Assembly (NCBI GenBank): GCA_964016885.1
Contig: OZ024743.1
Location: forward strand, 270,568,001-270,632,000
From: Eledone cirrhosa
Taxonomy: Eukaryota
Direction of reading: 5' to 3'
Length of the DNA stretch: 64,000 nt
Shown here: positions 8,153 through 56,924 of the stretch, piece after piece
Layout of the letters: each line of letters starts with the position of its first letter
How positions within the stretch are numbered: the stretch's first letter is position 1
Notes under the pieces: model-generated
The model's database searches: none
Told to the model about the DNA's origin: nothing
Seen by the model: the letters and a program-made list of their open reading frames with translations, nothing else
Position numbers and translations under genes: made by a program

Positions 8153-9660
8153 ATTTCTATATTAAATATTTATACTCTGCTATATATTGAGTACCTTACT
8201 TACTGTGGTCACCCCCGATTGAACCTGGGCTAAACTTATATATTATTTTATTATTTGTTTGACCCGAATAGCTTGGTCGTTTCTATGGCTTTGCGAATAA
8301 TGGTTTAACCATCGTCTCAGTGTGTTTGGCCTTTTAACGTATGTTGTTGCTCTAGTTCGCTAGTTTCTATGGAGCGCTTGCCACACATCTCGGAAGTTGT
8401 TTTTCGCTAATTTCCAATAGCCGAAATGCGATTCTCGCTAATTTATATTTATGTATATATATATATAGTCCTTCGTCAGTGATTTGGCAAATCACTGATG
8501 AAGGACTATTTTTATCATATGTAACCCATGTGCAACCACGCAGTATTCTTCTTTCTTCTCATGTTTTATATATATATATATATATATATATATATATATA
8601 TATACATACACATATATATATATATATATATATATATATACATACACATATACATACACATACACATGCAGGCAAGGATGCATCCATACATACATATATA
8701 GCGTAAATCTATAATGGCTGTCGACCTCATATACCTCATCTTTCTAATGATAATGACGAAACCAATATCGTAAAACGATAAGGCGAAACAATACCAAAAT
8801 TCCCACAAACAGACAAAACTTCAACACAGAACGCAATCGGTATGGACGACCATAGAAAATTACAACTATTTCTGCCTCTACTAGTCTTTGCGTGCGCCCT
8901 CGCGAGTGAGGACAGTTAACAGAAGCAGTGGTAATTCATAGTCGTTGAGGTACACGGTAACCCGATTACCACAACAAAAGGTCTGTCGTTGATGTGTGGT
9001 CCCGAGATGTCCTACCTTTTTTTCTGTGGTGGAAAATATAACAAAATGCAATGCGAATACTACCAACACTTCAAATCATATAATGATGAACATTGTGCAA
9101 CAGTGAAATACTCTAAGTGTTAAAAGTTATTAAAGCAGGAACGAGCAACATAAACAAAGCAAGGTTGTCAGAGAATCGAGGCACCGCAAAAACAAGTAAA
9201 ACAAAGGAAATGACAAAAGATTACATTTATATATTACATTTCAATATTTCGGTGTTAAGATACTCTTATGAAGAAAATATAGGGTTTAGTACCGACATGC
9301 TTGCTTAGAGTGTATATGCATATATAAATATGTGTGTGTGTGTGTGTGTGTGTGTGTGTGTGTGTGTGTGTGTGTGTGTGTGTGTGTGTGTGTGTGTGTG
9401 TGTGTGTGTGTGTGTGTGTGTGTGTGTGTGTGTGTGTGTGTGTGTGTGTGCGTGTGCGTGTGCGTGTGCGTGTGCGTGTGTTTGTGTGTTTGTGTGTGTG
9501 TGTGTGTGCATGTGTGTATGCGTGTACGTATATATATATATATATATATGTATATACCATTGCTTATGTGCCTTTCCAGGGGTCCAGGGCACTTGGTACA
9601 CACAAGTCAGCCAAATAATACCTTCTCTATTTAAAGCTTTTAACATCTCTGACTGAATTT

Positions 9661-10440
9661 CTTATTCTCCAGCGGCATTGACACATTTGAGTTTTTTGAT
9701 TACTCTTGTCATCTCAGTCTCCGAGAGATAAGTCATCACTTCCTGGTGAAACTCGTGTACGTCAAAAGATGCTGTTGTGATCGGGCTTAGGAGATCAGCA
9801 AAGTATGCTCTCCATTTCGCGAGGATGCACTTTTCTGAAGAGAGGAGTACCCCACACGCATTCCTGATAGCAGTTGTGAAAGAGGACTTCTTATTACGAA
9901 AAGGCATATGACCGCATTCTACGGGACCTGCTGTGGAAGGTTCTGCTGGAGTATGGGTTCGAATTTCAGCTTCTTGTTGCTCTGATGTCTCTATAAGACT
10001 GAAATATTTGTGTTCGGAAAATAGGCTGAATCGAAACCATTCAATGTGGGAATCGGACTCCGCCAAGGGTGCGTATTGTCACCGCTCCCGTTCATTATTT
10101 TCATGAAGAGAATTGTCGTGTGCGGCCGGATTGGAAGTGGTATCATGACTGGCAAGTGTAGAATCAGTCGGTTGGAATTTTCAGATGACATGGTATTATC
10201 TAATTCGACAGAAGGTGATCTCCAAGTTGCACTTGATAGGTTTGATGCCGGGTACTAAATGGCTGGAATGAAAATCAGTACTGTGAAAACTAAGACACTC
10301 GTCCTCTCAAGGAAGCTCGTGTACTCTACATGTGAAGGGAGTTCCACTGAAGCAGGTGGAGAAGTTCAAGTAACTTAGGGCTGTGTTCACGAGTGAGGGA
10401 AGTTCAGAAGGCTGAATTAAATGCAAGAATTGGATAGGTC
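9661..10440. mobile_element. RTE-type LINE fragment with 5' inversion
   Basis: Plus strand 9985-10440: GLRQGCVLSPLPF, LEFSDDMVL, GMKIST.KT (RT). Minus strand 9661-9910: ILAKWRAYFADLL..IKKLK..AAGE (region preceding RT). Confidence 0.8.
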
Positions 10441-10661
10441 TGTGTGAAAGAAGATAGTGATAAAGGGTAGTACATGGCATAGCCATAGCATTTTAACTGG
10501 TCTGTGGGAGGCAGGTGATGAATGTGAAGGTTGGTGTATAGGGGGTTAGTGAAAGTAATGGGTGAATTCCACCCTTTCTTAATTATCCCTTCTCATATAA
10601 ATCCCCCTCCTCCACCTCAAGTCTTCCTTATTTATACTGTGTCTGCTACTGAAACGTTAGT

Positions 10662-10711
10662 TCTTGTCTGATGACCCTGTCATAAGCAGGCGAAACTCCA
10701 GAGTAACAAGA
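10662..10711 (+). ncRNA. Type I HHR, family C, intact core
   Basis: UCUUGU-CUGAUGA-cCCUG(ucauaag)CAGGc-GAAA-CUC(ca)GAG-UA-ACAAGA. Perfect 6-bp stem I. Relatives at 22220-22264 and a degenerate one at about 7730-7775. Confidence 0.85.
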
Positions 10712-11479
10712 CCCACTATTTAGCCTTAATAACAATTAATATTAGAACTCTACTTCGGTATTGAGTACTCTTTTCTCTCAACCGTCAACCACATATATAT
10801 ATATATATATATATATATATATAACAATTATAAGTGTGAAGAGCAAATAGACAATTTATGTGTGTGTGTGTGTATAAGCATACAAACATACATACATACA
10901 TACATTCATACATACATACATACATACATTCATACATTCATACATACATACATACATACATACATACATATATACATACATACATACGCAGTCATACACA
11001 CACACATTCAAACATCCATCCATACATATATATATATACATACATACATCCATACATACATATACATATATATATATACATACAAACATATACACAACAT
11101 ATACATACATACGTACATACATATATAAATACATAAATACATACATACATACATACATACATACATACATACATACATACATACATACATACATACATAC
11201 ATACATACATATTTACGTACATACACACATGCAGATATAGACGTAGATATACAGTGTACCAGTGAAAACATACGGAACCTATCTGTGGTCAGTCACTGAA
11301 CATTGGCGATAGATGGCGCAACAGAGCGTGAAAAGAATGGCCGTCCATCATTTTGGCGGGAAAACCGGCGCTGCCACCCCCTCTCCCCCCTTTCCACCAT
11401 CCATTGCTCCAACATCAATCAAGACTCTTTTCCGCCCACCATTATCACAAGCCCCATCCACCCGCACTCCCTCTCCATT

Positions 11480-55270: not shown

Positions 55271-55315
55271 AACGGTGCTGATGATAGCTAACAAGCTTGA
55301 AACTAGTACATCGTT
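55271..55315 (+). ncRNA. Minimal type I HHR, family D
   Basis: Identical motif; predicted cleavage after 55308. Confidence 0.9.
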
Positions 55316-56000
55316 CCTGTGTCAGTGTTGAACAAAAAGGTGACGTGGTTGCCTTAACACCGTATGGCATAAATTCAGGCTGTTCAGTTTGTTTACAAAC
55401 GAACAAAGCGACGTTAGCGCCGCTAAACTGATACGTGCATATATGTATGTGTACCTGTATGCATATGTATGTATATATGTATATATATATATATATGTGC
55501 ATGCTACTGTACGTCTGTATACATATATGTATGTACGTATACATGCATACTTACATTTAAGTAAGTGCCATACTAAGAGTGAGAAATGAAATTTCGTTTT
55601 CATTTTGTTTCAATTATATATATATATATATATATATATATATATATATATATATATATATATACATATAGAGAGAGAGAGAGAGAGAGAGAGAGAGAGA
55701 GAGAGAGAGAGAGAGAGAGAGAGAGAGAGCAAACATCACGGGCGCTCTATCTCAAAATTATTTTTGAAAAGCATTAGAAATGCGCAACCGGTAAAACTTA
55801 AAACCAAAACTGAATACTAACCAATACTATTACTAATTTTTACTTATTCCTAATTAAACTATTTTTCACTGTGAACAATTTGTCACTATTTTCTTTTCCT
55901 TTTACTAATATATATATACAAACGTTTATATATATATATATATATATATATATATATATATATATATATATATATATATATATATATATATATATATATA

Positions 56001-56401
56001 TATAAACGTTTGTATATGTATAATAAAGCTAAAGCAATGCAGGTATGGACATAGAATAAAGAATGCAAATGCAAAAGATATTGTTGACAATTAGTCTTTT
56101 ACGGTAAAAGACTAATTGTCAACAATATCTTTTGCATTTGCATTCTTTATTCTATGTCCATACCTGCATTGTTTTTGCTTTATTATACATATACAGGGCC
56201 GTGAATTGGCAGTATCGGTAGAGGGTCGGACATGCTTTCCAGCATAGTTACGTCCCCTTACGATCTGAGTTCAAATCCTGCCGAGGTTAACTTTGCCTTT
56301 CATCCTTACGGGTTCGATAAAATAAAGTACCAGTAACCTACTGGGTAATTGCTGGCCTTGTGCCAAATGTAGAAACAATTATACATATACAAACGTTTAT
56401 A
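56001..56401. repeat. About 100-bp-arm palindrome interrupted by a SINE (56196-56377, 14-bp TSD)
   Basis: Centre ttttaCGGtaaaa at 56103. TSD attatacatataca at 56182-56195 and 56378-56391. Confidence 0.88.
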
Positions 56402-56589
56402 CCTCATTACATAATGCTTCAAGTGAACTATAACTTCCTCCTAAATATATATATATATATATATATATATATATATATATATATATATATATATATTTGT
56501 GTATAGTGTACATAATGCTTCAAGTGAACTATAACTTCCTCCTAAATATATATATATATATATATATATATATTTGTGTATAGTGGTAG

Positions 56590-56924
56590 CTATGGTGCTT
56601 CCGTAGGCGGTATGCCAAAATTAGCACTCGATATTCATCAGAGTAGAGTGTAGATATTATAAAGGAAACGAAAAATCAGTGATGCATGTGGACTTAGTTT
56701 ATTTCGTGTTACAAATGTTTCGTCGGCATGTAGCTCGAGTCATGGTCCTTGTATGGATCTGGCTGATTCTACTTCTGCGGGTTCTTTCAGACACGGGTGT
56801 TATGTCCGGAGCAAATTTTATCACTTTGCTCCGGACATAATACCCGTGTCTGAAAGAACCCGCAGAAGTAGAATCAACCAGATCCATACAAGGGCCATGA
56901 CTCGAGCTACATGCCGGCGAAACA
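56590..56924. mobile_element. Fold-back element, family N; HHR-like motif 56705-56795 (-)
   Basis: Arms about 56716-56814 and 56825-56924. CGUGU-CUGAAAGA-long insert-GAAA-CA(uu)UG-UA-ACACG, then AAUAAA. Confidence 0.65.

Follow-up and report, generated by a model that had tools for sequence, protein, structure and literature searches.

A duplicated bulged hairpin adjoins the insertion ends of Hydra-clade Penelope-like elements in Eledone cirrhosa and may guide reverse transcription

Penelope-like elements (PLEs) pose two puzzles: how they recognise their own RNA, and why their insertions have a tail at just one end. Here, by examining a 64,000-nucleotide stretch of the Eledone cirrhosa genome (assembly GCA_964016885.1, contig OZ024743.1, positions 270,568,001 to 270,632,000; hereafter the window) together with further DNA from this genome and from others, we find that insertions of Hydra-clade PLEs end just 5' of a small bulged hairpin of the general form RCUC-stem-loop-stem-UN-GAGYAC. 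This motif is real and clade-wide, and it usually occurs twice between the hammerhead ribozyme and the start codon. The hairpin is probably an RNA landing pad that positions the Hydra-clade reverse transcriptase (RT)-endonuclease to start 5-10 nucleotides (nt) upstream, as our analysis of insertion ends suggests.

The positions of these ends carry the finding. When junction references were aligned to the own-genome DNA examined, with duplicates removed, the 3' ends were bimodal and lay shortly 5' of one or the other hairpin in 41/41 cases for family E and 37/37 for family G, whose loci had been fetched with queries lying upstream of both hairpins. Within windows 5' of site 1 or site 2 lay 73 of the 85 ends in family B and 49 of the 55 in family A, and usable ends were few in family F (4/10, the other six being microsatellite noise), family H (3/3) and family I (0/2 at the identity cut-off). 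In most cases 5-10 nt separate the last unambiguous base from the hairpin, and that base is followed by TA, which the (TA)n target has as well. Family N gave 17 tail-less ends, at which the match stops 4-8 nt before the hairpin, and 17 tailed ones; in a family met in our fixed-interval sample (see below) the tail ends 6 nt 5' of the second hairpin, which precedes the Hydra open reading frame (ORF; L181). The metagenome loci gave 37 end rows: 15 stop at a distance of 0-6 nt on the 5' side of a hairpin, and 16 of the other 22 derive from one query that begins in a TA run. The original prediction, drawn from the letters of the window alone, had noticed the motif downstream of several hammerhead families; with the 3' ends mapped, they adjoin the hairpin on its 5' side, and the link between motif and element ends is tight. 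The tail (~60-165 nt here) is the stretch between the two end sites. The hairpin found in short insertions is hairpin 1, which on this reading was read through and did not set that end; it would be carried along when copying begins at site 2.

Head-to-head insertions combine the two sites. These pairs were not selected for hairpins, and 12 pairs with an ORF or an unclassified arm were excluded; 55 pairs joined a site 1 arm to a site 2 arm, two joined site 1 to site 1 and none joined site 2 to site 2. After removal of two double counts, one arm per site was seen in 53/55 pairs (P 4e-14 against the 50% ceiling of independent choice), and family N showed one arm at each site in 7/7 pairs. The spacers at the centres vary (7/25 at <=4 nt) and follow no single fold-back rule.

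By sequence, families A and B are the pseudo-long terminal repeat (pLTR) ends of Hydra-clade PLEs. The family A tail leads into an ORF in one of the first 30 loci, and a search with the N-terminus of this ORF recovered young copies with a 758-codon open frame. In 26 of the 30 best family A ORF copies the hairpin lies ~110 nt upstream of the ATG, mostly with a hammerhead ahead of it; of the other four, three are truncated before the hairpin and one was not displayed. The family B tail reaches the Hydra ORF through the second hairpin (L102, L120 and three tandem units in L387, which measure ~3540 bp each and have open frames). Family A units are ~5 kb long, with a long microsatellite-rich 3' untranslated region (UTR) and open frames (L091-L101). 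The family A protein (P0002, 713 aa) is encoded by a single ORF with RT and C-terminal GIY-YIG domains, in which the YIG motif could be read together with RWR, SDKT and the linker CNCLNKEAC (CxCx5C). The family B frame, also a single ORF with RT and GIY-YIG, has RWR, DKT and the linker CNCPDRSIC, and neither GxK[FY] nor a match to a rough CCHH pattern was found in it. A protein search returned 1416 relatives at E <= 1e-30. The family A and B proteins share 49% identity over 261 residues, and N-terminal identity among A, B, E, F and the G-J group is 41-52%. Both families insert into (TA)n, in tandem and inverted arrangement and with a one-sided tail, and families C and N, as candidate members of the clade, match them in anatomy and end pattern.

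The predicted family A hammerhead has a canonical type I core with three stems, and that of family B a variant core read as UUGAnAA; U3-A8 is a tolerated hammerhead variant. Atypical cores occur as UUGAnAA in family B (L120) and CCGAAGA in family E (L116), and the family N hammerhead (window 56790-56900) has one extra base and a long stem II. None of the window's hammerheads was matched in an Rfam scan.

The original prediction had held the motif to be common to unrelated hammerhead families, and this is borne out. The strict pattern ACTCTRCN{3,10}GTATTGAGT has 38,017 matches on the plus strand and 37,904 on the minus strand of the 3.0-Gb genome, 75,921 in total versus 8 (4 + 4) for the reversed pattern. 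In a sample of 40 stretches of 10 kb at fixed intervals (400 kb), a generalised descriptor found 46 matches (one an overlapping double) versus 5 on the reversed sequence, a density of about one per 9 kb, and a microsatellite junction lay <=130 nt downstream of 40/46 matches versus 909/4000 random positions. Between families A, B, C, N and M the flanks are unalignable (z <= 2.6 across the 90 nt that lie upstream of the motif and the 33 nt that lie downstream), whereas upstream flanks within a family do align (z 14-31). These families therefore do not align throughout, as simple recent relatives would, and the proteins linked to the motif differ to the extent given above. An Rfam scan of the 64-kb window gave no family at the gathering threshold.

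Details of the predicted motif had to be revised. All ten sites named for the window are present, with small corrections to strand and base details, and the listed family B copies are there together with one on the minus strand (27135-27158) that had been missed. The loop is free, as proposed, with lengths from 3 to ~100 nt. The stem and its UU bulge had been described as fixed; instead, the outer pair is A-U or G-C, the inner pairs change freely, and the bulge may be UU, UC, UA or UG. Directly 3' of the motif stands a conserved AC. An A(A/U)UAAA-like signal had been reported to precede the motif often, and AT-rich hexamers do so in families A and C; the signal is missing in family B and is not a common feature, the recurring feature being a short TA-rich stretch. 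Family M is a doubtful carrier: its one degenerate copy is missed by the covariance model at E <= 5, and no second copy was found in the own-genome DNA examined. A coding constraint on the motif, which stands in an open frame in families A and B, was rejected, as loops of 3, 4 and 8 nt would put it in different frames and a stop codon lies in one of the common family B loops. Two satellites (L079-L089, L108) match a looser core pattern by chance and, being unrelated, were set aside.

Does the motif behave as a folded structure? We counted pairs in 66 distinct motifs from metagenome loci, retrieved by a sequence-only search in which pairing was not demanded. The first inner pair is paired in 63/66 (40 C-G, 19 U-A) versus 47.8 after shuffling, inner pairs 2 and 3 in 42 and 41 of 66 versus ~28, and the register that lacks the bulge in 1/66. 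The outer pair is G-C in 55/66 of these motifs and A-U in the window's families. A 35-row alignment, with rows picked for pairing, is 98.6% paired and has 33 compensatory cells versus 10, and in 28 unused loci the covariance model based on this alignment gave 21 matches at E <= 0.1. The metagenome hairpin 1 tends to a U-A first inner pair and hairpin 2 to C-G (L271-L348), and the two pads may therefore not be equivalent.

The duplication of the motif was examined by motif-blind sampling, in which ORF starts were located by their KNIPIP codons (30 loci of 2218 matches), and this yielded further families that bear the motif. The descriptor RCTC-stem-loop-stem-TN-GAGY, run on 11 junctions, found two copies in B, E, E2, F and F2, one copy in A, G, H and I, and none in two junctions; on visual inspection a second copy, deviant at one base, is present in G, H and I, while J has one copy and K a degenerate one. 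A metagenome scan with a 60-protein alignment gave 78 loci with proteins 34-43% identical to that of family A, and we used the 50 of these loci that cover the N-terminus. A paired hairpin lies upstream of the ORF in 31/50 of these loci, versus 1 on the reverse complement, 0.75 in shuffled sequence and 0 inside the ORF. The sequence-only search found a copy in 40/50 and two copies in 26/50, with control values for one and two copies of 13 and 0 on the reverse strand and 6 and 1 in the ORF; the 50 loci form 35 clusters, 25 of them with the motif, and these statistics ignore kinship. In the published consensi seen in File S7 of PMC8557442, judged by eye, a clear copy stands at the end of the coral Hydra-2_Amil and of the sea-cucumber Hydra-2_Ajap, and two stand at the start of Hydra-1_Ajap, while Hydra-1_Amil, Hydra-1_Obim and Hydra-1_Crog show partial matches at best.

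How could such a hairpin set the ends of insertions? In the mechanism that we propose, the protein would bind the hairpin and nick (TA)n, and priming would occur at the UA-rich bases just 5' of the hairpin, which would pair with the nicked target, so that copying never includes the pad being used. If copying started at pad 2, pad 1 would be copied and a tail produced; a start at pad 1 would leave a tail-less end. Each of the two target ends would be primed from a pad of its own, with a protein dimer as the probable agent, after which the complementary DNAs (cDNAs) would be joined head to head. Since the used pad would not be copied, the renewal of both pads would require tandem read-through or circular RNA templates derived by the hammerhead; a circular template for PLEs has been proposed earlier, in the part of the literature seen here (PMC4209133). 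The more specific idea of programmed double priming, in which a dimeric RT-endonuclease on two 20-nt RNA pads makes one cDNA per target end, we advance tentatively, as a possibility that falls a little short of an even chance. A homodimer prediction for residues 1-480, which did not use the alignment, scored 0.00, and this speaks neither for nor against a dimer.

Several observations weigh against the landing pad, or against its generality. End positions are blurred by TA microhomology, and the end windows were chosen after the first data had been seen. Taken alone, the hairpins have little stability (-1.7 to -7.7 kcal/mol, with z from -2.1 to +0.5), and for the family A and B copies of the window other folds have the minimum energy, so the structure would need protein. 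Wobble counts (G-U 11 versus A-C 8) favour no strand. The second site of family A is only a GCAC/GUGC hairpin that lacks the full motif, and a pattern search for a second pad in family C gave 3 matches, all by chance, though this search was weak, with a tight pattern applied to an old family. An upstream copy is lacking in 10/50 metagenome loci, and families C, N and M had no linked ORF in the loci examined. Finally, a family represented in the window by a broken element, which we take to be Neptune-like from its linker motif, has two end sites 41 nt apart. At its junctions, examined in 10-kb stretches that reach the pLTR, no motif copy was found by pattern or covariance model, and no canonical hammerhead core was matched. 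The motif is thus not needed for PLE tails generally and, as far as this one control family goes, looks clade-specific. In the same family the 8 bases after the first site are complementary to the 8 after the second (L384:6200-7420; window 4130-4163), which by sequence could possibly be a different end-defining structure.

It is unlikely, in our judgement, that the motif acts in DNA, where the GIY-YIG endonuclease or a resolving step would cut just upstream and trim the ends. The lack of strand preference in the wobble counts would fit such a site, GCTC...GAGC, whose spacer varies, might serve as an inverted binding site, and in the published parts seen here the Drosophila virilis Penelope endonuclease needed tail sequence for plasmid cleavage (PMC11167929) and tails are ascribed to endonuclease-mediated resolution (PMC8557442). 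A 2-nt one-sided bulge, the covariation of the inner pairs and a range of loop lengths from 3 to ~100 nt suit a folded single strand and not a duplex site, however, and UUCG loops recur (family C, L305, L340); as read from the sequence, these loops and the one-sided bulge favour action as RNA. Moreover, the tail ends of a related PLE are reported, in the text consulted, to be the sites at which RT starts on RNA in vitro (PMC11167929).

We regard it as quite unlikely that the hairpin instead directs the formation of RNA 3' ends just upstream, by termination or by cleavage, at which RT would then start as in long interspersed nuclear elements (LINEs). The fixed short distance between insertion ends and hairpin, and the hexamers of families A and C, are what such a signal would produce, yet family B lacks the hexamer and copies end in target TA runs rather than in poly(A); a polyadenylation-type 3' signal was rejected on these two grounds. 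One end per site in 53/55 pairs is also hard to obtain through independent RNA ends, and internal initiation has been shown for Poseidon in the account seen here (PMC11167929). The common cis signal of the original prediction fits best as one for RT recognition and priming, and its suggested role in 3' processing through an AAUAAA-like signal fits poorly.

An element in the 5' UTR that serves translation or RNA stability after hammerhead cleavage, with ends falling nearby because of TA-rich bases alone, appears very improbable to us. The metagenome second copy does keep a fairly constant 37-51 nt from the ORF match, but this distance is ~90 nt in family B, a tandem unit in which no ORF was seen keeps three copies with ends mapping 5' of them, and ends ignore other TA-rich places in families E and G (41/41, 37/37). 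An additional translation role alongside the RT pad may exist. That the motif merely persists, as a neutral remnant, from a recent common ancestor or from tails exchanged among families is hardly credible and largely refuted by the compensatory changes and unalignable flanks. In favour of this reading, all hosts belong to one clade, and in one chimera (L109) an A-type end gives way to a B-type end where the two have the motif in common; but metagenome proteins as distant as those described above bear the motif, and it is kept in coral and sea-cucumber elements. In this chimera (L109:4811-4940) a family A-type hammerhead and hairpin are joined to a family B tail, and the junction at the motif's shared 3' half suggests template switching between families.

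The landing pad thus being the reading that we prefer, its copies in the window are collected in Table 1 with neighbouring features.

Table 1. Motif copies, insertions and related elements in the window
Feature	Position	Strand	Remarks
Broken Neptune-like PLE (RT + GIY-YIG), negative control	565..4163	+	clade label from linker motif
Family A short copy	8106..8243	+	degenerate hairpin 1 8174-8194; one mismatched inner pair in 8174-8192 (+)
Family C type I hammerhead core (CUGAUGA...GAAA)	10668..10695	+	motif read; predicted cleavage ~40 nt upstream of hairpin
Family C hairpin 1, cUUCGg loop, 3' AC	10747..10768	+	covariance model E 3e-5; element ends ~24 nt downstream in TA run
Family A head-to-head insertion	14044..14232	.	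tailed - arm with hairpin 1 14087-14105 and hammerhead core 14138-14160; tail-less + arm
Family B head-to-head insertion	18389..18575	.	left arm tail-less, stopping 5' of hairpin 1; hairpin 1 (18499-18524, +) and tail in right arm
Family B head-to-head insertion	20166..20522	.	one tail-less and one tailed arm; hairpin 1 20445-20470 (+)
Family C hairpin 1, older copy	22301..22320	+	hammerhead core 22223-22251
Family B compound insertion	26974..27279	.	hairpin 1 27135-27158 (-)
Family M degenerate look-alike, membership doubtful	29152..29172	-	broken outer stem; degenerate hammerhead-like core upstream
Family A head-to-head insertion	31218..31765	.	both arms with hammerhead; - arm: hammerhead 31334-31356, hairpin 1 31270-31290, tail; + arm: hammerhead 31699-31721, stops before hairpin
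Long-loop motif copy, another family	34357..34404	-	TA run 37 nt downstream; second copy of this family 41386-41433 (-)
Broken Hydra-clade PLE ORF fragment	42008..42710	-	C-terminal part: CxCx5C linker, GIY-YIG region
~610-bp tandem unit, no ORF seen	46109..46918	+	three motif copies: 46203-46230, 46309-46332 (degenerate), 46379-46411; repeat 46813-46840; second unit stops just 5' of second hairpin
Family B head-to-head insertion	47145..47337	.	hairpin 1 47260-47285 (+), first base T, not A
Family N insertion	56570..56930	.	hairpin 1 56624-56649 (-); tail ends ~50 nt downstream
Motif copy, further hammerhead family	57704..57731	+	TA run 60 nt downstream

The ~610-bp unit with no ORF seen, which also occurs at L100:1037-2323 and whose ends map 5' of hairpins, is by its sequence a candidate non-autonomous passenger of the Hydra RT. 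The window contains other repeats as well. At 5240-5560 another PLE-like 3' end has a CUUGAG core variant and ends in TA, preceded by a Hydra ORF fragment at 5034-5171. Near-identical tandem and inverted copies of ~470 bp at 53496-55615 belong to a retrozyme-like hammerhead family that lacks the motif and has related copies at 24571, 45176, 48009 and 59923. A 93-bp tandem satellite at 62236-63103 has an open frame through it.

What would a duplicated landing pad mean for the biology of PLEs? Two pads offer a proposed cause of one-sided tails, and double priming, if true, would explain PLE tails, their one-sidedness and head-to-head insertions together. Any RNA that bears a pad would then be a substrate, short non-coding units included, and in telomerase's sister group the pad would be a portable signal by which an internal RT start can be chosen. 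A short, clade-wide, covarying and duplicated motif at a fixed offset from insertion ends makes RNA recognition by PLEs directly testable, and for such tests there are young copies that are nearly identical and have open frames. The motif is also a marker with which very many ORF-less ends in invertebrate genomes can be classified.

Neither the element class nor the tail nor internal initiation is new. In the open-access literature seen, in part as full text and exclusive of Repbase reports and subscription journals, we found no description of the motif, its duplication or the end offset, in agreement with the original prediction, which had not recognised the motif as described. The Hydra clade of C-terminal endonuclease-bearing (EN+) PLEs, as set out in the sections consulted of Craig et al (2021; PMC8557442), shares with our families a ~700-aa single ORF with RW[KR], DKT, CxCx5C and, at its C-terminus, GIY-YIG, a pLTR hammerhead, (TA)n insertion, partial tandems and inverted 5'-truncated copies, often with a tail at a single end; one-sided tails were thus noted earlier (PMC8557442). 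In those sections the hammerhead is the only conserved RNA element described, the tail is credited to endonuclease resolution, and tails are 30-40 nt long (PMC8557442), versus the longer ones seen here. Non-LTR retrozymes are likewise short type I hammerhead repeats with a proposed origin from PLE pLTRs, and no RT-recognition motif is described in the parts of these reports seen (PMC7229834; bioRxiv 10.64898/2026.07.22.740005). Unlike retrozymes, the short copies of families A and B mostly stem from coding elements, as insertions that are 5'-truncated or head-to-head.

The closest experimental precedent, again from the parts of the paper seen, is Poseidon_Ac, the only PLE made to work in vitro, whose binding site has been mapped just roughly (Frangieh et al, 2024; PMC11167929). 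In this Poseidon-clade PLE, RT initiates internally, at the two sites between which the tail lies, near the pLTR-ORF junction and downstream of the hammerhead, where the end sites of our families lie too; it needs RNA ~55 nt 3' of the start, in a stem loop, and the purified protein, a predicted dimer, cuts and extends both target strands (PMC11167929). Unlike in the Hydra clade, Poseidon_Ac starts inside the ORF in an 'AC-rich stem loop', and no conserved or duplicated motif is reported in the text consulted (PMC11167929).

Other retroelements and viruses also offer parallels to the proposed pads. Bulged stem-loops that recruit RT are known from the 3' UTRs of LINE/R2 elements and from hepatitis B virus (HBV) epsilon, and priming from both target ends is known as L1 twin priming. 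The LINE/R2 and HBV epsilon pads are single and lie inside the copied region, whereas the Hydra-clade pads proposed here would lie 3' of the start, would not be copied by the event that they direct, and would be duplicated, so that the second priming site is hard-coded in the element.

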